From Coprobacillaceae bacterium (GTDB lineage Bacteria > Bacillota_I > Bacilli_A > Erysipelotrichales > Coprobacillaceae): a stretch of 32,000 bases of DNA. Under the pieces are notes generated by a model. The model was given only the letters and a program-made list of their open reading frames with translations, did no database searches and was not told the DNA's origin. The position numbers and the translations under genes were made by a program. The stretch is taken from the NCBI GenBank assembly GCA_963675915.1, contig OY780959.1, positions 780,001-812,000 on the forward strand, read 5' to 3'. Of this stretch, positions 12,700-25,253 are shown piece after piece. Within the stretch, counting starts at the first letter, position 1; each line of letters starts with the position of its first letter.

Positions 12700-14034
12700 T
12701 TATTCTCCGGAAATTGATACTTCTTTGAACAAGATTGAAGGTGCACCAAGACCACTATATGAAAAATAGAGGTCGCTGGCGATTTCGTCAATTTGCTCAT
12801 CAAGTAAGGTGAACAGATTTCCAGCAATCAAAATCAGGTTGATTGGAGTGGTTTTCGCTCCATTTTCGACTTGATATCCGGAACATTGAAGAGAAAAATC
12901 TCCAGTCAGTCCGTTCATCCCGGCATGCAACCCGGCAATTTTAGTTATCAGCAAGCCGTTATCCAGCAAATTAAGCAATTCATCTTGGCTTTTGTCCAAC
13001 GGTTGAATATAGAAGTTGGTCGGATGGACATCCACCGCTTCGCGGTATCCCGGTTTGAATCCGTTTCCGGTTGATTCAACTCCGGCTTTTTTGGCAGTCT
13101 TGAGGTTATGCAGGAATGACTTGATCACTCCGTTTTCAACTACAGTCTTTCTCAAACAAGCTGTCCCTTCGTCATCAAAGCTTGAAGAGTTGACCTGATT
13201 TTCTTTTAGCGGGTCATCGATAATCGTCAGTTTGGAGCTGAAAGTTTTTTGACCAAGCTTATCTTTAAGTTTGCTCAATCCCTTATTGACACGATCACCG
13301 CTGAAACTTGAAGAAAGGGCCCCGAGCAGGGAAACCATCGCTTCGTTTTGGATTATCAGATCATACTTTTGGGATTTTACCTTCTTGGCCTTCAACATTC
13401 CGGTCGCCTCACTGACAACCTTGTGAGCCAGCTTGTCCAAATCGAATTCTTCAACTGCAAATTTGATTTGGTAATCGAATCCGGTTTTGACATCCCCTTC
13501 TTCTTCGACCATGATTGAAGTCGTCATTACCGCATAGTTGGATTTTTGGGCCAAGTCAAGCCCATAACTGTTGATCAGTTTGACCTCTTTTTTGGCCATT
13601 GAGAAGTTGGTCGACATCACCTGTTTGATCCGCGGATCCTGCTTCAGGACTTTGCCTTCAAGTTTTAAAAGCAGATCGATGATTTCCGGAGTTTTGATTG
13701 TTTCAAGGTCCGGATAGTACATCTCCACGTCTTGATATTCACCGGCTTTTTCATTGAAAAGTACCTCATCATCACTATCAATGATTTTGGCACTGGTGAT
13801 TATTTGGTAAAGCAGATCGTCGATTTGGGAATTGTCGAATTTCTCCGTAAAGGTGTTCCCCTGTTTTCCGTTGTAGATGCCCCTAATCGAAAGACCGGTA
13901 ACTTCACTGAGGTTGTAGTCATCAACCTTTGATTGATATATTCCCACATCAAGCGATTTGCGGGTTGACTCGTATAGTTCCAAAGAAGTTATTTTCATTT
14001 CTTCGGCTTTTTTCAGCAATAGTTCATAGTTCAT
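12700..14034 (-). CDS. pmbA: PmbA/TldE-family protein (non-catalytic partner of TldD)
   Basis: PmbA_TldD fold (GLHAGMNGLTGDFSLQCSGYQVENG...) with no HExxxH motif. The start is set to the ATG at 14034 (MNYELLLKKAEEM), overlapping the tldD TGA by 1 nt. The 32-codon ORF-track extension lies inside tldD. Confidence 0.85.
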   Translation of the reverse strand: MNYELLLKKAEEMKITSLELYESTRKSLDVGIYQSKVDDYNLSEVTGLSIRGIYNGKQGNTFTEKFDNSQIDDLLYQIITSAKIIDSDDEVLFNEKAGEYQDVEMYYPDLETIKTPEIIDLLLKLEGKVLKQDPRIKQVMSTNFSMAKKEVKLINSYGLDLAQKSNYAVMTTSIMVEEEGDVKTGFDYQIKFAVEEFDLDKLAHKVVSEATGMLKAKKVKSQKYDLIIQNEAMVSLLGALSSSFSGDRVNKGLSKLKDKLGQKTFSSKLTIIDDPLKENQVNSSSFDDEGTACLRKTVVENGVIKSFLHNLKTAKKAGVESTGNGFKPGYREAVDVHPTNFYIQPLDKSQDELLNLLDNGLLITKIAGLHAGMNGLTGDFSLQCSGYQVENGAKTTPINLILIAGNLFTLLDEQIDEIASDLYFSYSGLGAPSILFKEVSISGE

Positions 14035-15425
14035 CAGATTTGTCCTCCTCTTCCACCGACTGACATTTGGGTTACCCTGATAGTCGGTTGTCCGACATCG
14101 ACTGGAAGCGATCCGCTGACAGATCCGCACATTCCCTGAGCCCGGGAAAGATTGTCACCCACCATGTCGATTTTCATCAGAACCTCGGCTCCATTTCCGA
14201 CCAATGATGCACCCCGAACCGGTTTTGTGATTTTACCATCTTCAATTAAATAACCTTCCTGAACAGCGAAGTTGAAATCACCGGTAGCCGGATTAACCGA
14301 TCCCCCGCCAAGACTGGCAGCGAAAAGTCCGAACTTGGTATTGGTGATGATTTCATCAAACGTGCTGTCGCCATTACAGATGAAAGTATTGTTCATCCGT
14401 GAAGTCGGCTGATACGAATATGATTGTCTTCTTCCGCTTCCAGTTGAGATGGCCCCCATTCTCCGGCCATTAAGCTGGTCGACCAGATAGCCTTTGAGAA
14501 TTCCGTTTTCAATCAGCACATTGCGTCCGGTGAAATTCCCTTCATCATCGATATTTGAAGAACCCCAGGCGTTGGCAATGGTCCCATCGTCGATGGCGCT
14601 GACCGCATCGCTGGCAATCTTCTGCCCGATTTTGTTGGCAAAAACCGATTGGTTGCGGGCTACCGCTGTTGCTTCAAGAGGATGACCGCAGGCTTCATGG
14701 AAAATCACACCGCCAAAACCGTTGTTGATGACAACATCCATCACGCCGCTAGGACATTCCTGGGCATTGAACATGGTGATGGCTTTTTTCGCCACTTCGG
14801 CTCCGATTTTTTCCAAATCGATTTCATCATAGAATTCCAATCCTTTGGCTGCTCCGGGTGCCATATGGAAATCCTGAATCTGACCATCTTTTTCCACGAT
14901 TGCCGTGATTGAGATCCGAGTCCGCACCCGACGGTCTTTGATGTATTTTCCCTCACTGTTGGCAATCAAAACATCCTGGTGACTGTCAAGATAGGTCACA
15001 TTTACTTTGGAAATCATCTCATCGTAGTTTTTAGCACTAAGATATGCCTTTTCGATAATACCTTTTTTAAAATCGACACTGTAGTCGTCGGGCATTTTCA
15101 AGATCCGATGGCGATTTTTATAATGAATTTTCTTAAGAGGAACCGCCTGGGTTGTCGGCTCACCGGTGAAGTTGGCCGCCAGATCCCGGGTTGTTTTTAA
15201 AAGATGATTAATGTCATTGTTGTTGGTATTGGCATAAACACTCATCTTGTCATGATAAATCCGGATCCCAATTCCATAGCTGGTACCGCTGTTGGCTTTT
15301 TCAATTTTACCGTCAATCTGGTTGATTGCCGTGGTAAATTTGTCTTCTTCAAATATTTCAACAAAATCTGCTCCAGTTGCCAGTCCTGCAGCGATTATTT
15401 TTTTACACGCCTCAATATTAAGCAT
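14034..15425 (-). CDS. tldD: TldD-family zinc metalloprotease
   Basis: 463 aa with the HExxxH motif in GGVIFHEACGHPLE and the C-terminal GDFNFAVQEGYLIEDGK motif. An SD (GGAGG) lies 8 nt upstream of the ATG. Confidence 0.9.
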   Translation of the reverse strand: MLNIEACKKIIAAGLATGADFVEIFEEDKFTTAINQIDGKIEKANSGTSYGIGIRIYHDKMSVYANTNNNDINHLLKTTRDLAANFTGEPTTQAVPLKKIHYKNRHRILKMPDDYSVDFKKGIIEKAYLSAKNYDEMISKVNVTYLDSHQDVLIANSEGKYIKDRRVRTRISITAIVEKDGQIQDFHMAPGAAKGLEFYDEIDLEKIGAEVAKKAITMFNAQECPSGVMDVVINNGFGGVIFHEACGHPLEATAVARNQSVFANKIGQKIASDAVSAIDDGTIANAWGSSNIDDEGNFTGRNVLIENGILKGYLVDQLNGRRMGAISTGSGRRQSYSYQPTSRMNNTFICNGDSTFDEIITNTKFGLFAASLGGGSVNPATGDFNFAVQEGYLIEDGKITKPVRGASLVGNGAEVLMKIDMVGDNLSRAQGMCGSVSGSLPVDVGQPTIRVTQMSVGGRGGQI

Positions 15426-15651: not shown

Positions 15652-15683
15652 TATCAAAAAAAACAGCCAATTTAAAATTGGCT
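15652..15683 (-). terminator. Rho-independent terminator of the GRE/fsa operon
   Basis: The minus strand reads AGCCAATTT-TAA-AATTGGCT followed by GTTTTTTTT, about 10 nt after the fsa stop. Confidence 0.8.
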
Positions 15684-15692
15684 ATATTAATC

Positions 15693-16373
15693 TTAGATAT
15701 TTTGAATTGTCTTATCCACTCCATACATATCATGCCAGTCGGAATTGAAATCCTTGACTGCCTTATCAATGTTCGGATTGGCAAATATCGCCTTTAAAAT
15801 GGCAAAGGGGGCAGTAATTGCCTGGGCGTTGGAATTGAATGAATCCCTTACTTGACGAACACCCTTGAAACTGGCTGCCAGAATTTTACAGTCATAATTG
15901 TCGTCTTCGATTCTTTTGGCCAATTCAAAGATCAACTCTTGGGGATCACCACCGAGATTTCCAATCCGATTTACATATGGTGCGATGTAATCGGCATCAG
16001 CCTCAAGGGCCATATATGCCTGCATCAAATCGTACACTGCAGTAGCGGTCACGTTGATTCCTTCGGTTTTGAGTTGCTTGATGGCTTTGACCCCTTCGTA
16101 TGAAACAGGGACTTTAATGTAGACCTGGGCGTCGATTTCGTCGATGATGCGGTGGGCTTCAGCGACTATGCCGTCACATTCAGTGGCGATTACTTGAACG
16201 TGCAAACTCCTTTCATTACCGATGATTTTGCGGATTTCTCGCATGTGGTCGAAAAAATTTTCCGGATTGGTCTTTTTAACAATCGAAGGGTTACTGGTAA
16301 CTCCGGAAATCGGCAGATATTCGACTGCCTCCTTGATTTCTTGCAAATCAACTGTGTCAATAATAAATTCCAT
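15693..16373 (-). CDS. Fructose-6-phosphate aldolase-type class I aldolase (Fsa/TalC subfamily of the transaldolase fold)
   Basis: 226 aa, colinear with E. coli FsaA as I recall it: GVTSNPSI, LHVQVIA (Gln), the Schiff-base Lys in YIKVPV, and LAASFK. It has YIAPYVNRIG (Tyr/Asn, as in Fsa) rather than the SPFVGR of small transaldolases. Confidence 0.85.
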   Translation of the reverse strand: MEFIIDTVDLQEIKEAVEYLPISGVTSNPSIVKKTNPENFFDHMREIRKIIGNERSLHVQVIATECDGIVAEAHRIIDEIDAQVYIKVPVSYEGVKAIKQLKTEGINVTATAVYDLMQAYMALEADADYIAPYVNRIGNLGGDPQELIFELAKRIEDDNYDCKILAASFKGVRQVRDSFNSNAQAITAPFAILKAIFANPNIDKAVKDFNSDWHDMYGVDKTIQNI

Positions 16374-16386
16374 GATGGTTCTCCTT

Positions 16387-17307
16387 TTATTTTATAATAT
16401 TGATTATTCCGTTAAGGCTCAAAATCTTGTAGAACTGCTCCATTTGCGCTTTGGTAAAACGTTGCAGTTTGGAATCAAGCGGGTACTGCCGGTCCAAGCG
16501 ATCATACTTGGCACCAGCAAGGTAATTGTAGTTGAGCAGTTCGTATTTCACCTGGGGATCAAGACTGATCAGAAAACGACTGATCGTAGCAAGATTTGAA
16601 GATGTTGCGGTAATATCAGGAATGAGAGGGGTGCGGATAGTCACCCGCTCATGATAAGGACCACAAAGCAGTTTTTGGATATTGGTTTTAATCAGTTGCG
16701 ACGACACACCGGTGTATTTCAAATGTTCATCATCATCGAATATTTTCAAATCGACATATATTTGGTCGACCAAAGGGATGATTTCCTCGATCACCTGAAA
16801 TGGCGCATGTAAAGAGGTTTCCAAGGCGGTATGGATATTTTCGTGGCTGCATTTTTCCAAGACGGATTTTAAAAAATCCGGTTGAGCCAGAGGTTCCCCG
16901 CCCGAAAAAGTAACTCCCCCGCCGTATTTGAAGAAAACCTGGTCCTGTTTGATAGTTTCCATTAGTTTCGCGACATCATATTCTTCGCTGTCATAGCGCA
17001 GCGCCAGCGCCGGGCAGGCTTCAATCAGATTGTCGAAATCGCCCGGGTAGTCATAGTTGAGATATGGTCGGCCCCCTTTAAAAAGCATCTGACCGGGTCG
17101 GGCCTGGGCGGCGCATCTGCGACAGGAGATGCACTCGCTGATAATGAAGAGCGGCAGGCGCTTGAAGGAAATTCCTTCAGGATTTTGACACCATTGGCAT
17201 TTTAACGGGCACCCTTTGAGAAAAACCGTGGTCCGCAGTCCATCACCATCGTGAATTGCGAATCTCTTGATATCGAAGATAAGGGCCTTAGATTGAGTCA
17301 TAAGCAT
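16387..17307 (-). CDS. Glycyl-radical enzyme activating enzyme (radical SAM)
   Basis: 306 aa with the radical-SAM CX3CX2C motif (GCPLKCQWCQNPE). Extra Cys clusters (CISCRRC...ACPALAL) are typical of activases that pair with eliminase-type GREs. It also has GVTFSGGEP. The start overlaps the GRE 3' end by 20 nt. Confidence 0.9.
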   Translation of the reverse strand: MLMTQSKALIFDIKRFAIHDGDGLRTTVFLKGCPLKCQWCQNPEGISFKRLPLFIISECISCRRCAAQARPGQMLFKGGRPYLNYDYPGDFDNLIEACPALALRYDSEEYDVAKLMETIKQDQVFFKYGGGVTFSGGEPLAQPDFLKSVLEKCSHENIHTALETSLHAPFQVIEEIIPLVDQIYVDLKIFDDDEHLKYTGVSSQLIKTNIQKLLCGPYHERVTIRTPLIPDITATSSNLATISRFLISLDPQVKYELLNYNYLAGAKYDRLDRQYPLDSKLQRFTKAQMEQFYKILSLNGIINIIK

Positions 17308-19645
17308 TCCTTGCGATGATTTCGTTTTGAAGTTTGTTGTCGAGTTCTACAAAATAAGCAGTATAGCCAGCCACCCGAATAGTCAGTGACTGATGATTTT
17401 GGGGATTTTCTTGGGCATCAAGCAAATCATCGCGATTGACAACGTTGAACTGGATATGCGGTACCTCAAGATCGACAAAGGCTCGCAAAAACGACTCGAA
17501 CTTCTCTTTGCCTTTGGTACTGGTAAAAAAGTCAGGCAGGAATTTCATATTCAACAAGCCGCCGTTGGTTGTAAGACTGTTATTCATCCGGGCGACAGAT
17601 TTCAAGACTGCAGTCGGGCCGGAACGGTCACGGCCGTAGACCGGCGACATTCCCCCGTCGGCCAGCGGTTCCAAGGCATTACGGCCATCAGGAGAGGCTC
17701 CGACATTTTCTCCCATAGGCACATGGGCGGAAACCGTGTACATCCCGGTATGATATTTGCCACCTCGATAATTGGTAAAGTCCTTCAACCTGGTGTTAAA
17801 ATACTCCGCCCATTTTGCTCCCATTTCATCGACCCATTGGACATCATTACCGAACTTGGGGGTTCGTTTCAAAAGTTGGGTCTGGATTATCTCATGACCT
17901 TGGTAATCAGCTTTCAGGGCCTTAAGAAGTTGGTGTCGGGTAATCATTTCCTTGTCGAAAATCTGATCTTTCAGGGCACTTAACGAGTCGGCCAGCGAAG
18001 CAATCTGGATCATCTGAATTCCCGACAGATTGTATTTGGCCCCTCCTCTGGTCACATCGATACCTTGGTCGAGGCAGTCAGCGACTACGGTTGATAAAAA
18101 TGCTGATGGCAGGCAGTCCTGATGGGCTTTTTCAACTTTGTTTTCAATATCGATCATCTTTTCAATGAAATAGTCCAACTGTTTTTGATAAGCTGCTTCA
18201 AAGTCTTGATAAGTTTTAAAATCTTCGAGATTGCCAAGATCCAAACCGAGCTTGGCACCGGTGATCAAACAGCGGCCGTTGTTCAATGTCAGCTCAAGAA
18301 CTTTATTGAAATTGAACATGGCGGCATCGCTCCAGCCCAGATTATTGCCCTGGGTCGTCAGTTCGACACATCCCACAATCGCATAATTATAGGCATCACC
18401 GGGTTCGATCTCCAGATTGGTAATCAAGGGTTCGATAATCGCCTCGTCATTGAAGAATTGGGGCATTCCCGAGCCCTGGGCGACCACTTCAATCGACTTT
18501 TGAATCAGTTTTGATGATGACTGGCGGTTCAGTCTGACTGAAAGGTTCGGTTGGGGCAATCCGATGTCTTTTTGAGCCTGTAACAGCAAGAATGAAAGAT
18601 CATTGGCATCATCCTCACCATCTTGATTCAGGCCTCCGATAGCGACATTGAAACCGATTGGAAAACCGGCGAAGTATTTGGCACTATGCTCATTGCGCAA
18701 GTAGACGATCTGGTTGAACTTCAAATAAAGAGCCTCGATTATTTCCAAAGCTTCGTTTTCGCTTAGGATGCCTTTTTCTATATCATTACGGTAGTAAGGA
18801 TATAGATACTGATCAACCCGTCCGGGCGAAAATGATGAGGCATTGGATTCCATATGGAGAATCACGAACAGGAACCAGAGAGCCTGAACTGCTTCATGGA
18901 ATGTTTCAGGGGCCCTTTGAGTCAGGTTGCGACAGATTTGTCCTACCTGGGTCAGCGAATCTCGATAAGGATGCTCCTGTCTTGTCATCTTGGAAATCAA
19001 ATCATGATAACGCCCGATAAACTCAAGCGCCCCTTCAAGGGTGATGATTGTACATTCATAAAATTCTTTTTGGGATTCATCTGCCTTTTCCAAATGGCCT
19101 TGCGCAAGTTGGAGCAGTCCCTTTGGACCTAATTTCAGCCAAGTAGCCACATCGGGACAGATATGTCCCTGAGCATGGTCTTTCTGATTGATCTTGACGA
19201 CCTTGGCAATAGCTCCGATTTTATCGCCATAGTTGTTTAAAATCTCATGCTCGAGCGATTTGTCATGCCAGAAAGGATAAATATGCTTTTTGAAGTAATC
19301 GATATCCTCAAAATGAACTTTGAATTTATCCTGGGGGCGGGATTCGAGAGTCTCGAATTCCTGCATGACCCAGGCACAGCCGCTTTCAGGAAAGACTACC
19401 CCCGAACGGACGCCTTTGGTCCGATTGGCGACAATCAGCTCCTCTTTTTCCACGCTTATTTCCATTCGCTCCAAAGCCGCTTTCAAGGACAAAGCTCTTT
19501 TTTTGGCTCGGGTTTGGTCGGGATTGTTTTGATAGACTTCAGTGATGATCTTGGCTTGTTCAATTGAAACGTAACGCGGCTCCTCCAGCATTTTTCTCTT
19601 GAGGATGTCAATCCGTTCGAATTTGGGTGGATTTGTTTTTGTCAT
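17288..19645 (-). CDS. Glycyl radical enzyme, PFL2/dehydratase-lyase (eliminase) clade; substrate unknown
   Basis: 785 aa with the glycyl loop LTIRVAGYTAYFVEL near the C-terminus. The thiyl loop is AIVGCVELT (Cys plus Glu, not the Cys-Cys of pyruvate formate-lyase). It also has the HMESNASSFSPGRVDQYLYPYY motif shared with YbiW/PflD-like enzymes, from memory. Confidence 0.9.
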   Translation of the reverse strand: MTKTNPPKFERIDILKRKMLEEPRYVSIEQAKIITEVYQNNPDQTRAKKRALSLKAALERMEISVEKEELIVANRTKGVRSGVVFPESGCAWVMQEFETLESRPQDKFKVHFEDIDYFKKHIYPFWHDKSLEHEILNNYGDKIGAIAKVVKINQKDHAQGHICPDVATWLKLGPKGLLQLAQGHLEKADESQKEFYECTIITLEGALEFIGRYHDLISKMTRQEHPYRDSLTQVGQICRNLTQRAPETFHEAVQALWFLFVILHMESNASSFSPGRVDQYLYPYYRNDIEKGILSENEALEIIEALYLKFNQIVYLRNEHSAKYFAGFPIGFNVAIGGLNQDGEDDANDLSFLLLQAQKDIGLPQPNLSVRLNRQSSSKLIQKSIEVVAQGSGMPQFFNDEAIIEPLITNLEIEPGDAYNYAIVGCVELTTQGNNLGWSDAAMFNFNKVLELTLNNGRCLITGAKLGLDLGNLEDFKTYQDFEAAYQKQLDYFIEKMIDIENKVEKAHQDCLPSAFLSTVVADCLDQGIDVTRGGAKYNLSGIQMIQIASLADSLSALKDQIFDKEMITRHQLLKALKADYQGHEIIQTQLLKRTPKFGNDVQWVDEMGAKWAEYFNTRLKDFTNYRGGKYHTGMYTVSAHVPMGENVGASPDGRNALEPLADGGMSPVYGRDRSGPTAVLKSVARMNNSLTTNGGLLNMKFLPDFFTSTKGKEKFESFLRAFVDLEVPHIQFNVVNRDDLLDAQENPQNHQSLTIRVAGYTAYFVELDNKLQNEIIARNAYDSI

Positions 19646-20403
19646 ATTGTGGTTATTCCTTTTTCTTTGATAATTTCATTTTGTTCATCAAGCAATTCAT
19701 CACTGATTATCAGGGCACTGACATCTTCAAGCGCCCCGAAGATATAATTGCCGTATTCACTGAATTTGCGCTGCTCGCAAATCAGATAACTGGCTTGGCT
19801 AGAAGCGATAATCTGTTCCTTGAAGTTGCCGTCCTCGATATGATAGGTTGTCAGCTGATCCTGGATCAGATCGATTCCCACCACACCCAGAAAAGCGCGG
19901 TCGATTTTAAACAGTCTGATCATTTTAAGTGCGACACTGTCCCAAAAACCATCCCGTTCCTGGTTAATCTTGCCGCCAATGAAAATCACTTCGATATTCC
20001 GGGCTTGAATGAGAGAATTCAAAACATCAATCATATTGGTGACTACAGTCAGATTGAAGTCTAGTTGGCTGATTTCGCGGGCCAGTTCGATATTGGTGGC
20101 CGAAATATCGAGAAATACGGTTTCATCAGGTCTGATCAGTTCTGCGGCCTTTCTGGCAATAATCAAGCGTTGGGGACCGGCAATTTCCTTGCGCTGTTCC
20201 AAAGCGAAAAGATGTGGATTTTCCTTTAGTGCCACCGCCCCGCCATAAGTTTTTTTAAGCAGTCCCTTGTGCTCTAATAAAGTGAGATCCTTACGAATGG
20301 AATCTTCGCTAATATCAAACCGTAAGGCCAACTCCTTGACAGTCACCCGACCCGATTTGGTGATCATTTCCACTATCAAATCATGTCTTTCACTCGCAAA
20401 CAT
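19642..20403 (-). CDS. DeoR-family transcriptional regulator (HTH + sugar-phosphate-binding DeoR C-terminal domain)
   Basis: 253 aa with an N-terminal wHTH (ERHDLIVEMITKSGRVTVKELALRFDISEDSIRKDLTLLE) and a DeoR C-terminal domain. The stop overlaps the GRE ATG (ATGA). An SD (GGAGG) precedes the ATG. Confidence 0.85.
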   Translation of the reverse strand: MFASERHDLIVEMITKSGRVTVKELALRFDISEDSIRKDLTLLEHKGLLKKTYGGAVALKENPHLFALEQRKEIAGPQRLIIARKAAELIRPDETVFLDISATNIELAREISQLDFNLTVVTNMIDVLNSLIQARNIEVIFIGGKINQERDGFWDSVALKMIRLFKIDRAFLGVVGIDLIQDQLTTYHIEDGNFKEQIIASSQASYLICEQRKFSEYGNYIFGALEDVSALIISDELLDEQNEIIKEKGITTI

Positions 20404-20494
20404 CTCGACGACCTCCTATTATTATTTGGTATTGTTTTATCCTGTTTGTTATTATTATACACCTATTCGGCGAGATTAACTCGGATTTCATAAA

Positions 20495-20525
20495 TATGAA
20501 AAGACTCCGTTATTATAACGGAGTC
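20495..20525 (-). terminator. Rho-independent terminator of the ABC transporter gene
   Basis: The minus strand reads GACTCCGTTA-TAA-TAACGGAGTC (10-bp stem) followed by TTTTCATATTT. Confidence 0.8.
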
Positions 20526-20538
20526 ATGATAATTTGAC

Positions 20539-22896
20539 TTATTCGCTTCGTAAAGCTTCGACCGGATCTTTTTTGGCGGCCATTTTGGCGGGAATGAAGC
20601 CACCGATAAAGGTCAATACGATACTGATGATTACCAGTCCGGTCGCATGGACAATATCAAGCTGAGCCACGTTTTCCAATTCAGTCATTTCATAGAGCAC
20701 TGCATTGGCAGGGATGGTCAGAAGATATGCCAGGGAAATCCCCAGCAATCCCGAACAGGCTCCAATAATGAAGGTTTCGGCATTGAAGACCCGGGTGATA
20801 TCTTTCCCCCGCGCTCCCAATGCCCGCAGGATTCCAATTTCCTTGGTTCTTTCCAAAACGGAAATATAGATAATAATTGCAATCATGATCATTGAAACTA
20901 TCAGTGAAACCGCGGCAAAAGCCACCAGGACAATAGTCACCCCATCCATGATGGTTCCCGACAGATTGGTAATAGTTGCTGCCAGATCAGTGTATTCGAT
21001 TCGAGCATCGTCATCAAGTCCTTCATTCCATTGATCGAGATAATCGATCAGTTCTTCTTTGGCATCGAAATTGACGGGATAGATTGAAATTGATTCGGGA
21101 ATATAACTGGCTCCCAGACTGGCCATCATTTCATCTTTGGTGATACTCGCATTCAGGGAGAATCCGGCTGAAGGCATCCCACTATATTGACCGGGATATC
21201 CCGAAGTGCTTTGAGTCGCAAAACGGCTGCCATCCAGGACATTATAGTCAAGTTCCTGTTGATCTAGAACAATTTGCGAGTTTTGGGCAGCGGCGATATA
21301 ATCAAGAGCCAAAGCATCGCTGTAGGCAATTCCCGAATCGAGAATCGAGATCGCCGAATCCGATTTGATTCGCATCACAGCAGTGATAGTCAATGTTGTG
21401 GCATTGTCGCTGTCATACAAGTCGGAAAGATCCCCGGCGGAACCGTTAACTACATAATAGTTGCCGGATTTTTGATAGTAATCGTCATTATCAACAAGTT
21501 TATAACTTGTCCCCACTATCTCATCAAAACTGATGGTTTCATTGGAACTGTCAAATCCCAGTTCGTTAAGGATGGTTTTATCAAGCTGGTTGTATTCATC
21601 GACAATTAAAACCAGATCAGTTTTTGAATGAGGCAACTCTCCGGCCAAAACGTCATAGTATTGCGAAAAGTAATATCCGCTGTCCTGATTGTCCTTGGCA
21701 GGATAACTGAAGAAGTTGGCAGTGCTGGTATTGATAGTAGATACTGTTTGGTCGACTTCTTTTAGAATGTTCATCTCCACACTTCTGGAATAAGATATTC
21801 CATCATAAAGGTTTTCGTCAATCCCATTGATGTAATCAAGATACTCAGAGGTTATCTCGTTGGTATGGACCACCAGGTTTTGGGATGAATCATAGACATG
21901 GACTGCCTCATCATCGGGAAACTCCTCGGCTTCGCTTTGGGTATTGCGGCCCATAGCGGATATCATCGAAATCGCATTACGCGAAATTGTGATTGGATAA
22001 TTCGATAATGAGTTTTTCTCAAAGTTGTCTATTTGGATATCAAAACCGTTGGAAAGTGACAGCACCAGAGCGACCCCGATAATCCCGATACTCGAAGCAA
22101 AGGCAGTCAAAGCAGTCCGACCTTTTTTGGTCATGATGTTTTTTCCTGAAAGTTTCAAGGCAGTGAAGAAACTCATGCTGGTCTTGTTGGGACGATAATT
22201 GTCTGATTCGCTGTCAATTACTACCGGATTCGAGTCCGTGAGGATATGACCGTCCTCGAATTCCACCACCCGGTCGGCATAACGGTCAGCCAACTCCGGA
22301 TTATGAGTAACCATAACTACCAGCTTATCCTTGGAAATTTCCCGGATCAGCTGCATTATCTGTTCGCTGGTTGTGGTATCCAGGGCTCCTGTTGGTTCAT
22401 CAGCAAGAATGATATCGGGATCATTGGCCAAAGCCCGGGCGATCGCCACCCTTTGCATCTGACCGCCGGAAAGCTGGTTGGGTTTTTTGTGGATATGGTC
22501 GGACAATCCGACTTTTTCCAGCAGTTCCATCGATTTGCTGCGTTTTTGAGCACCGGAGATTCCCGAAAGGGTCATTCCCATTTCGACATTGTCAATCACA
22601 CTAAGATGGGGAATGAGATTGTAACTTTGGAAAATGAAACCGACACTGTTGTTGCGGTACGCATCCCAGTCGGAAGCTCTGAACTTTTTAGTTGAACGGC
22701 CGTTGATGATCAAATCACCGGATGTGTATTGGTCCAAACCACCCAATACATTCAAAAAGGTGGTTTTTCCAGAGCCACTTTGGCCCAGGATAACGACGAA
22801 TTCCTGTTCTTTGAAATTGAGCGATACCCCATCCAATGCTTTTTGAGTGAATGTACCGGTTGTATAAACCTTGGTAATATCTTTTAACTGAATCAT
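20539..22896 (-). CDS. Fused ABC transporter ATP-binding/permease protein, MacB/FtsX type
   Basis: 785 aa. The N-terminal ATPase has GQSGSGKTT, LSGGQMQRVAIARAL and ILADEPTGALD. It is followed by one TM helix, a ~370-aa extracytoplasmic domain and a C-terminal FtsX-type 3-TM module (ERTKEIGILRALGARGKDI). Confidence 0.9.
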   Translation of the reverse strand: MIQLKDITKVYTTGTFTQKALDGVSLNFKEQEFVVILGQSGSGKTTFLNVLGGLDQYTSGDLIINGRSTKKFRASDWDAYRNNSVGFIFQSYNLIPHLSVIDNVEMGMTLSGISGAQKRSKSMELLEKVGLSDHIHKKPNQLSGGQMQRVAIARALANDPDIILADEPTGALDTTTSEQIMQLIREISKDKLVVMVTHNPELADRYADRVVEFEDGHILTDSNPVVIDSESDNYRPNKTSMSFFTALKLSGKNIMTKKGRTALTAFASSIGIIGVALVLSLSNGFDIQIDNFEKNSLSNYPITISRNAISMISAMGRNTQSEAEEFPDDEAVHVYDSSQNLVVHTNEITSEYLDYINGIDENLYDGISYSRSVEMNILKEVDQTVSTINTSTANFFSYPAKDNQDSGYYFSQYYDVLAGELPHSKTDLVLIVDEYNQLDKTILNELGFDSSNETISFDEIVGTSYKLVDNDDYYQKSGNYYVVNGSAGDLSDLYDSDNATTLTITAVMRIKSDSAISILDSGIAYSDALALDYIAAAQNSQIVLDQQELDYNVLDGSRFATQSTSGYPGQYSGMPSAGFSLNASITKDEMMASLGASYIPESISIYPVNFDAKEELIDYLDQWNEGLDDDARIEYTDLAATITNLSGTIMDGVTIVLVAFAAVSLIVSMIMIAIIIYISVLERTKEIGILRALGARGKDITRVFNAETFIIGACSGLLGISLAYLLTIPANAVLYEMTELENVAQLDIVHATGLVIISIVLTFIGGFIPAKMAAKKDPVEALRSE

Positions 22897-23045: not shown

Positions 23046-25253
<2,208 letters not shown>

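Follow-up and report, generated by a model that had tools for sequence, protein, structure and literature searches.

The 32,000-nucleotide stretch of DNA considered here (the window) comes from a Coprobacillaceae bacterium, an anaerobe of gut type (GenBank assembly GCA_963675915.1, contig OY780959.1, positions 780,001 to 812,000 of the forward strand). Its minus strand carries, head to tail, the genes for a DeoR-family repressor (deoR), a glycyl radical enzyme (GRE), a radical-SAM activase of the GRE, and a class I aldolase of the fructose-6-phosphate aldolase (FSA) type. Together, these genes probably form the DeoR-controlled catabolic core of an anhydroglycolysis-type pathway, in which an anhydrohexitol-6-phosphate would be opened by radical chemistry and its product cleaved by the aldolase.

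Operon Anatomy

The unit and its boundaries comprise the following features, given in the direction of transcription:

20503-20525, minus strand: intrinsic terminator of the upstream MacB-like ATP-binding cassette (ABC) gene, 10 pairs, 5 of them GC, with a T-rich tail; the upstream boundary of the unit
20404-20502, minus strand: promoter and leader, read from the sequence, with TATAAT at 20459-20454, AGGAGG at 20417-20412, candidate operator elements and a palindrome
19642-20403, minus strand: deoR, DeoR-family repressor of 253 residues, heading the operon and sharing ATGA (stop codon) with the GRE start
17288-19645, minus strand: GRE, 785 residues, PflD superclade; predicted anhydro-sugar-phosphate C-O lyase (isomerase)
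16387-17307, minus strand: GRE activase, radical-SAM, 306 residues counted from the first ATG; likely true start at ATG 17301
15693-16373, minus strand: FSA-type class I aldolase, 226 residues; predicted to convert 1-deoxyfructose-6-phosphate into glyceraldehyde-3-phosphate and hydroxyacetone
15663-15685, minus strand: intrinsic terminator closing the operon, 10-pair stem and 3-nt loop, then TTTTTTTT (a T8 run)

An earlier, sequence-only reading of this DNA had described a tightly coupled four-gene unit bracketed by terminators, and the description holds: all four open reading frames (ORFs) are in place, the deoR stop and the GRE start share the ATGA at 19642-19645, the activase stop is followed after a 13-nt spacer containing AAGGAG by the aldolase ATG, and hairpins are found at 20525-20503 and 15685-15663. 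The same reading gave the overlap of the GRE and activase genes as 20 nt. This is correct if the activase is counted from its first ATG, with the GRE stop TAA (17288-17290) inside the activase ORF; from the second ATG, at 17301, the overlap is 14 nt, and this version is probably the right one because the Thomasclavelia ramosa activase uses the second-ATG start (14 nt). We infer that the four genes form one co-transcribed unit.

The Reference Pathway

As recounted in passages of PMC13450708 and PMC12441222, Ma et al. (JACS 2024) assigned two E. coli GREs: YbiW opens 1,5-anhydroglucitol-6-phosphate (AG6P) and PflD opens 1,5-anhydromannitol-6-phosphate (AM6P), both yielding 1-deoxyfructose-6-phosphate. 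FsaA and FsaB split this product into glyceraldehyde-3-phosphate and hydroxyacetone, and a phosphotransferase system (PTS) brings in the substrates (PMC13450708, PMC12441222). The same passages class PflD and YbiW as GRE "isomerases," name the pathway "anhydroglycolysis," and make GldA part of it. In the mechanism given there, a thiyl radical takes the C2 hydrogen, the CXE Glu removes the proton of the C2 hydroxyl, and the ring C-O bond breaks (PMC13450708, PMC12441222); the overall reaction is therefore a redox-neutral ring opening, not a dehydration.

Two claims of the sequence-only reading change in this light. The radical dehydration that it had proposed for the window enzyme gives way to the ring-opening C-O lyase (isomerase) reaction of the characterised relatives. 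The literature that it had pointed to does exist (Ma et al. 2024, as relayed by PMC13450708 and PMC12441222), but AG6P, which it had assigned to both E. coli GREs, is the substrate of YbiW only, PflD acting on AM6P. The E. coli parallels that it had drawn, ybiW-ybiY-fsaA and pflD-pflC near fsaB, are borne out by the neighbourhoods themselves: ybiV-ybiW-ybiY with fsaA divergent, and gldA-fsaB-ptsA / frwC-frwB-pflD-pflC-frwD. The structures used for comparison below are 8YJO (E. coli) and 8ID0 (AM6P-bound) for PflD, 8ID7 (AG6P-bound) and 8YJN for YbiW, and 1R8W/1R9D for glycerol dehydratase.

Placement of the Glycyl Radical Enzyme

The GRE matches PF02901 (PFL-like) over residues 10-645 (4.7e-194) and PF01228 (Gly_radical) over residues 664-766 (1e-28). 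The codons that bear on catalysis and specificity are these:

18362-18370, minus strand: Cys-loop codons for Cys426 (thiyl radical), Val427 and Glu428 (general base); the CXE motif in GCVE 425-428
18323-18358, minus strand: codons of loop residues 430-441, TTQGNNLGWSDA, clade-specific, 3' of the Cys loop; candidate specificity determinant
17366-17368, minus strand: codon of Gly760, the glycyl radical site, in RVAGY 757-761 and within the PF01228 match

Cys426 and Glu428 align with Cys431 and Glu433 of 8ID0 and with Cys433 and Glu435 of glycerol dehydratase, and a stable glycyl radical is predicted at Gly760. The Cys-x-Glu motif agrees with the earlier assignment of the enzyme to the eliminase type and not to pyruvate formate-lyase (PFL), as does a score of 159 bits against TIGR01255, whose cut-off is 994. 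The GRE shows general full-length similarity to PFL, choline trimethylamine-lyase, hydroxyproline dehydratase and the sulfonate lyases and dehydratases, but that it should be any of these is extremely improbable: it reaches 577 bits for HypD (cut-off 1100), 533 for CutC (1050), 546 for HpfG (1000) and 492 for HpsG (1000), GCVE contains a single Cys in place of a Cys-Cys pair, and no partner genes of those pathways are present. The enzyme passes TIGR01774, "formate C-acetyltransferase/glycerol dehydratase," which covers the PFL2/glycerol-dehydratase subfamily (739 bits, cut-off 678), and reaches no NCBIfam equivalog cut-off.

A PDB search matches the GRE over its full length to 37 solved GRE sequences. 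E. coli PflD (8YJO) and 8ID0 come first with 601 bits each, glycerol dehydratase 1R8W is third with 547, and YbiW follows with 412; the corresponding identities are 40% to PflD and 8ID0, 36% to glycerol dehydratase and 34% to YbiW. Since raw identity is not decisive, a tree was built from 123 full-length representatives of 50%-identity clusters, 22 members of the window clade and the reference enzymes. In this bootstrapped neighbour-joining tree, which is distance-based only, the window clade (100%) is joined by the sequence P0131 (100%) and then P0124 (66%), and the resulting group unites with E. coli PflD and 8ID0 (100/100); glycerol dehydratase, YbiW and the remaining 50%-identity representatives lie outside. 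By this placement, the GRE counts as a member of the PflD superclade, on the PflD side and not the YbiW side, yet as a representative of a separate subfamily and not a PflD orthologue.

The tree bears directly on the B12-independent glycerol dehydratase that the sequence-only reading had offered as an alternative. The proposal that the GRE is such a glycerol or diol dehydratase, with the aldolase an unrelated neighbour, can point to the third-best PDB match, to membership in the TIGR01774 subfamily, to the fold, size and CXE motif shared with the C. butyricum enzyme (1R8W/1R9D), and to the conservation of the positions that align with its His164, Asp447 and Tyr640. It is nevertheless very improbable. 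The GRE groups with PflD at 100% bootstrap, outside the glycerol dehydratase lineage, and is only 36% identical to that enzyme; His281, of the His281-Ser282 pair, is replaced by Ser270 (ESNASS vs ESNGHS); and there are no 1,3-propanediol dehydrogenase or microcompartment genes in the window and none conserved in about 80 related loci, whereas the linked FSA aldolase is conserved. No placement with glycerol dehydratase, CutC, HypD or the sulfonate enzymes, each of which the sequence-only reading had named as adverse to its proposal, emerges from the analysis: the tree leaves glycerol dehydratase outside the group, the scores for CutC, HypD and the sulfopropanediol dehydratases lie far under the cut-offs, and the diol dehydratase 5I2A ranks below PflD in the PDB search.

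Active-site segments also point to PflD. The GRE and PflD have in common the segments NQxDxxQGH, ESNASS, FAGFPxG, YTVSAHVP and LADGGxSP, which are not found in YbiW or glycerol dehydratase and align with known substrate-contacting residues of the latter; the YbiW segments ESNGHS, SAGSPLYQN and GCIETAVGGKWGYRCTG differ from the window GRE. As a proxy for ligand-contact residues, 58 positions that separate PflD from YbiW were defined from three canonical PflDs and four YbiW-type enzymes. The clade consensus follows PflD at 27 of them and YbiW at 7; at 18 it agrees with neither, and the remaining 6 are variable. Of the 18 "neither" positions, eight belong to the loop 430-441, every one of them conserved in 74 or more of the 83 clade members, and Asp440 in this loop aligns with Asp447 of glycerol dehydratase. 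A difference in substrate recognition would most plausibly reside in this loop. Among basic residues present in both PflD and YbiW but not in glycerol dehydratase, which would be candidate phosphate ligands, none is clear-cut.

Activase and Aldolase

The activase combines Radical_SAM and Fer4_12 domains and scores 267 bits against TIGR02494 (cut-off 174). Its CX3CX2C motif is formed by C33, C37 and C40, and a second Cys group (C59/C62/C65/C98) is available for an auxiliary cluster. The family to which it belongs is 41% identical to YbiY and 34% to PflC. At 306 residues, and with the auxiliary Cys cluster, the window activase is longer than those of the PflD system (260-292 residues).

The aldolase has a TAL_FSA domain and passes NF009299, "fructose-6-phosphate aldolase," with 289.4 bits (cut-off 214), while its scores against transaldolase models are far below their cut-offs. 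Alignment with E. coli FsaA and FsaB shows that D6, N28, Q60, K87, T111, A131, Y133, R136, S168 and K170 are kept; Lys87 is the Schiff-base Lys, and Tyr133, in the motif YIAPYVNRI, occupies the position of FsaA Tyr131. In transaldolases this residue is Phe, and Tyr marks aldolase over transaldolase activity. The earlier identification of the enzyme as FSA-type is thus upheld by NF009299, Tyr133 and the full set of FsaA catalytic positions, and the possibility that it is only a transaldolase, which would have undercut the proposal, finds no support in either NF009299 or Tyr133. The donor-pocket position of FsaA Leu107 is Ala109 in the window aldolase, Ala in T. ramosa and C. ragsdalei, and Gly in Collinsella; this substitution might suit a hydroxyacetone or 1-deoxy donor.

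Conservation of the Module

A scan limited to one genome per species identified 80 loci with a GRE 59-71% identical to that of the window. Most belong to Erysipelotrichales (Thomasclavelia, Massilimicrobiota, Faecalibacillus, Catenibacterium, Dubosiella, Longibaculum, Solobacterium); others come from Clostridium, Paenibacillus, Pectinatus, Collinsella and Epulonipiscium. When all neighbouring ORFs are clustered, only four large families result: GRE, activase, DeoR and FSA. By tblastn, an activase homologue is present in 79 of the loci, that is, in essentially all, and lies directly 3' of the GRE where listed; FSA is found within 5 kb of the GRE in 52 of the 63 loci with enough downstream DNA, and a DeoR homologue within 5 kb in 52 of the 73 with enough upstream DNA. 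Because the gene set recurs in about 80 species-level genomes, the module is not a chance grouping: it is a conserved, mobile unit that occupies differing genomic contexts, for example in T. ramosa. The GRE is 71% identical to its T. ramosa orthologue, for which the assembly collection has 1970 indexed blocks.

Some relatives carry accessory genes in or beside the module: GFO/IDH/MocA oxidoreductases, aldo-keto reductases, FGGY kinases and YbiV-like HAD phosphatases (loci L012, L042, L055 and L079; L015; L016 and L080; L060, L064, L069 and L070). The oxidoreductases, whose family includes 1,5-anhydrofructose reductase, stand inside the module in four relatives; their PDB matches are generic, and 1,5-anhydrofructose reductase itself (2GLX, 4KOA) is matched with E values from 1e-13 to 5e-23 but is never the best match. 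Eight HAD phosphatase homologues occur in related loci, five of them beside the module, a likeness to the E. coli ybiW locus with its ybiV; in L069, the HAD gene overlaps the aldolase stop.

The surroundings of the window operon have a counterpart in two Coprobacillaceae metagenome-assembled genomes (MAGs). Their loci L068 and L071 are syntenic with window positions 6000-31200 on both sides, with flanking proteins 48-94% identical: katG, a metallo-beta-lactamase-fold gene and a penicillin-binding protein (PBP) gene on one side, tldD/pmbA, pilus genes and efp on the other. Both carry deoR, GRE and activase at the same site, without the FSA aldolase and without the MacB-like ABC gene (window 20539-22896). 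The window GRE is 71% identical to that of T. ramosa as against 63% to these syntenic copies, which suggests that the window lineage either underwent replacement of the module or gained the aldolase.

Other arrangements exist further afield. The metagenome contig L088 carries P0121, a GRE 56% identical to that of the window, in a different context. Genes for a sugar ABC transporter, a regulator of the AraC type, an activase and a 623-residue protein that matches nothing in Pfam precede P0121, which is followed by a far more distant GRE (28% identical) and another activase; the 14 kb show no aldolase. In the Streptococcus canis-type contigs L089 and L090, two GRE systems stand in tandem. The first pairs a cellobiose-type PTS with a YbiW-like GRE (53% identical to E. 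coli YbiW), the second a Frw-type PTS with a PflD-type GRE; behind the latter lie a single activase, a single FSA and a single iron-dependent alcohol dehydrogenase (Fe-ADH), and the start of the locus truncates another radical-SAM gene. As the PflD-type GRE of these contigs is 99.6% identical to 8ID0, the latter comes from a close Streptococcus relative.

Transport and Substrate

In four clade members (L073, L077, L078, L079) a Frw-type PTS adjoins the GRE, as in the canonical PflD system. Its components are EIIA_2 and homologues of FrwB and FrwC, which reach 70% and 53% identity, respectively, to the proteins of the E. coli pflD locus; two of the four loci also have PRD-type regulators. The EIIC of L073 is 78% identical to an Enterococcus EIIC and 71% to one from Streptococcus canis. 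The genes of these two EIICs immediately precede those of canonical PflD orthologues (81% and 99.6% identical to 8ID0), after which come genes for an activase, FSA and a GldA-like Fe-ADH. That the same transporter type feeds canonical PflD and a GRE of the window clade argues for substrates that are the same or very similar, and is the strongest available argument to this effect.

A second restriction comes from the aldolase. The stereospecificity of FSA enzymes is for D-threo ketose phosphates of the fructose type, and this limits what the GRE may produce. For the substrate, which the sequence-only reading had left open, the Frw-type PTS of the four relatives and the stereospecificity of FSA narrow the choice. 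The PTS came to light in the neighbourhood survey for PTS and kinase genes which that reading had recommended, and which also turned up the FGGY kinases of L016 and L080.

Several observations weigh against AM6P or AG6P as the substrate, or against close kinship in function with PflD. The GRE scores 722.9 bits against the NCBI PflD equivalog NF007437, below the cut-off of 1109, in agreement with its placement in a separate subfamily, and its identity to PflD, about 40%, is less than that between PflD and glycerol dehydratase (42%). The loop 430-441 reads TTxGNNLGWSDA in the clade and SIPGRTYGLHDI in PflD, and residues 540-547 read YNLSGIQMIQ and YNFSGVQGIG, respectively, both being conserved in the clade. 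The PTS lies in cis in no more than 4 of about 80 relatives, and the 32-kb window holds no PTS, kinase, permease or alcohol dehydrogenase/reductase; the earlier statement that transport and kinase genes are missing at the operon was accurate. Among the best 120 matches to the FrwC homologue, none is from Thomasclavelia or another named Erysipelotrichales genus, apart from the query's own Coprobacillaceae MAG; the named matches are from Enterococcus, Streptococcus, Clostridium, lactobacilli and other non-Erysipelotrichales, a listing that is uninformative for the Erysipelotrichales themselves. Finally, some members and sister sequences have other neighbours: an FGGY kinase (L016, L080), a ROK kinase (P0131) or an ABC transporter (P0121).

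These points could be read as signs of a third specificity within the PflD superclade, in which the same chemistry and FSA cleavage would serve another anhydro- or deoxy-sugar phosphate that enters via a kinase or a different transporter. The clade is distinct, its loop flanks a residue aligned with the substrate-binding Asp447 of glycerol dehydratase, most loci are without a PTS, and paralogous GREs of this family already divide substrates between them in E. coli and Streptococcus. Such a reading is tentative and less probable than an anhydrohexitol-6-phosphate of the known kind: the conserved FSA partner restricts the product to a fructose-type D-threo ketose phosphate, the PTS of four clade members is of the same type as that of canonical PflD, with the L073 EIIC 71-78% identical, and no conserved neighbour points to an alternative substrate. 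It is likewise possible, though rather doubtful, that the window clade as a whole constitutes a third functional subfamily of ring-opening GREs, with its loop adapted to a substrate other than AG6P and AM6P and with non-Frw entry in most gut Erysipelotrichales.

The DeoR Regulator and the Leader

DeoR has an N-terminal PF08220 HTH_DeoR domain (8.6e-17) and a C-terminal PF00455 DeoRC sensor domain (1e-38), and its scores stay below every NCBIfam equivalog cut-off. The leader contains A-rich elements between its -10 box and its ribosome-binding site, AAACAATA at 20437-20430 and AATAATAA at 20456-20449 and 20426-20419. Among 46 deoR upstream regions, AAACAATA occurs in 30% and AATAATAA in 37%, compared with 7-8% of 606 other upstream regions. 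Both elements are candidate DeoR operators, although the phylogenetic relatedness of the loci makes their enrichment only suggestive. The upstream terminator is immediately followed by the palindrome TTTCATATTTATGAAA (20501-20486), a perfect 7+7 repeat (TTTCATA-TT-TATGAAA); L068 has a similar element, ATTTTCA...TGAAAAT, at the equivalent place.

Proposed Function

We infer the substrate, the reaction and the effector of DeoR as follows. The activase, using S-adenosylmethionine, would place the radical on Gly760 of the GRE. In turnover, the radical would move to Cys426, which would abstract the C2 hydrogen of a 1,5-anhydrohexitol-6-phosphate, most likely 1,5-anhydro-D-mannitol-6-phosphate; its C2 epimer, 1,5-anhydroglucitol-6-phosphate, is possible, and the manno epimer is favoured because of the placement with PflD and the Frw-type PTS. 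Glu428 would deprotonate the C2 hydroxyl, the ring C1-O5 bond would break, and return of the hydrogen would give 1-deoxyfructose-6-phosphate. The aldolase, with Lys87 as Schiff base and Tyr133 as acid/base, would then release glyceraldehyde-3-phosphate, which would enter glycolysis, and hydroxyacetone. DeoR probably keeps its own operon repressed until a sugar phosphate from the pathway builds up. Genes outside the operon would provide uptake with phosphorylation (probably by a Frw-type PTS) and reduction of hydroxyacetone; lacking both functions, the operon is not self-contained, as the sequence-only reading had called it.

In this form, the operon resembles the PflD-PflC/FrwCBD/FsaB/GldA system of E. 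coli and its Streptococcus and Enterococcus equivalents in the CXE Cys loop, in superclade membership (100% bootstrap), in the adjacent activase and in the linked FSA-type aldolase. It differs in regulation, with a translationally coupled DeoR at the front where E. coli has the AraC-type YijO and where the PflD loci of Firmicutes have SorC- or PRD-type regulators, joined in Enterococcus by a divergent DeoR; and it has neither PTS nor Fe-ADH/GldA in cis. The YbiW-YbiY-FsaA system, with YbiV, is similar in uniting GRE, activase and FSA in the absence of an adjacent PTS, but its GRE, 34% identical, belongs to a lineage from which the window enzyme is excluded.

Flanking Genes

The rest of the 32-kb window is made up of housekeeping genes: recN, dxs, ispA, xseA, nusB, efp, competence-pilus genes, tldD/pmbA, the MacB-like ABC gene, katG, a PBP gene and lepA. 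Every ORF taken as a gene is on the minus strand. An Rfam scan of the window gives no matches, and its base-composition profile shows no signal of recent transfer. The tldD- and pmbA-type metallopeptidase ORFs (12700-14130 and 14034-15425) overlap by 97 nt as listed; the GTG start of the downstream ORF is probably too far upstream, and a Met follows at residue 33 (MNYELL...). The catalase-peroxidase gene katG (23046-25241) stands one gene upstream of the operon of the oxygen-sensitive GRE, and at the same place in L068 and L071. In E. coli, katG is about 8 kb from pflD; the nearness of katG to GRE operons is probably a coincidence.

Significance

Both the pathway type and the enzyme class are already published, and the operon is a variant of the anhydroglycolysis described in 2024, with no new chemistry. 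What sets it apart is a GRE from a subfamily of its own, apparently uncharacterised, whose active-site loop is specific to the clade, together with an activase of the longer type, a translationally coupled DeoR, and a PTS and reductase separated from the core. According to a passage of PMC12441222, 1,5-anhydroglucitol serves clinically to monitor glycaemic control, and neutropenia in two inherited diseases is caused by its 6-phosphate; it is therefore of practical interest which gut bacteria can destroy anhydro-sugars, and operons of this type occur in Erysipelotrichales that are very common in the gut. Should the clade have the same function as PflD, anhydroglycolysis would have a wider host range, and its core would be separable from the transporter. 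If instead the altered loop reflects a new substrate, a further, overlooked sugar would take part in the carbohydrate metabolism of the gut.

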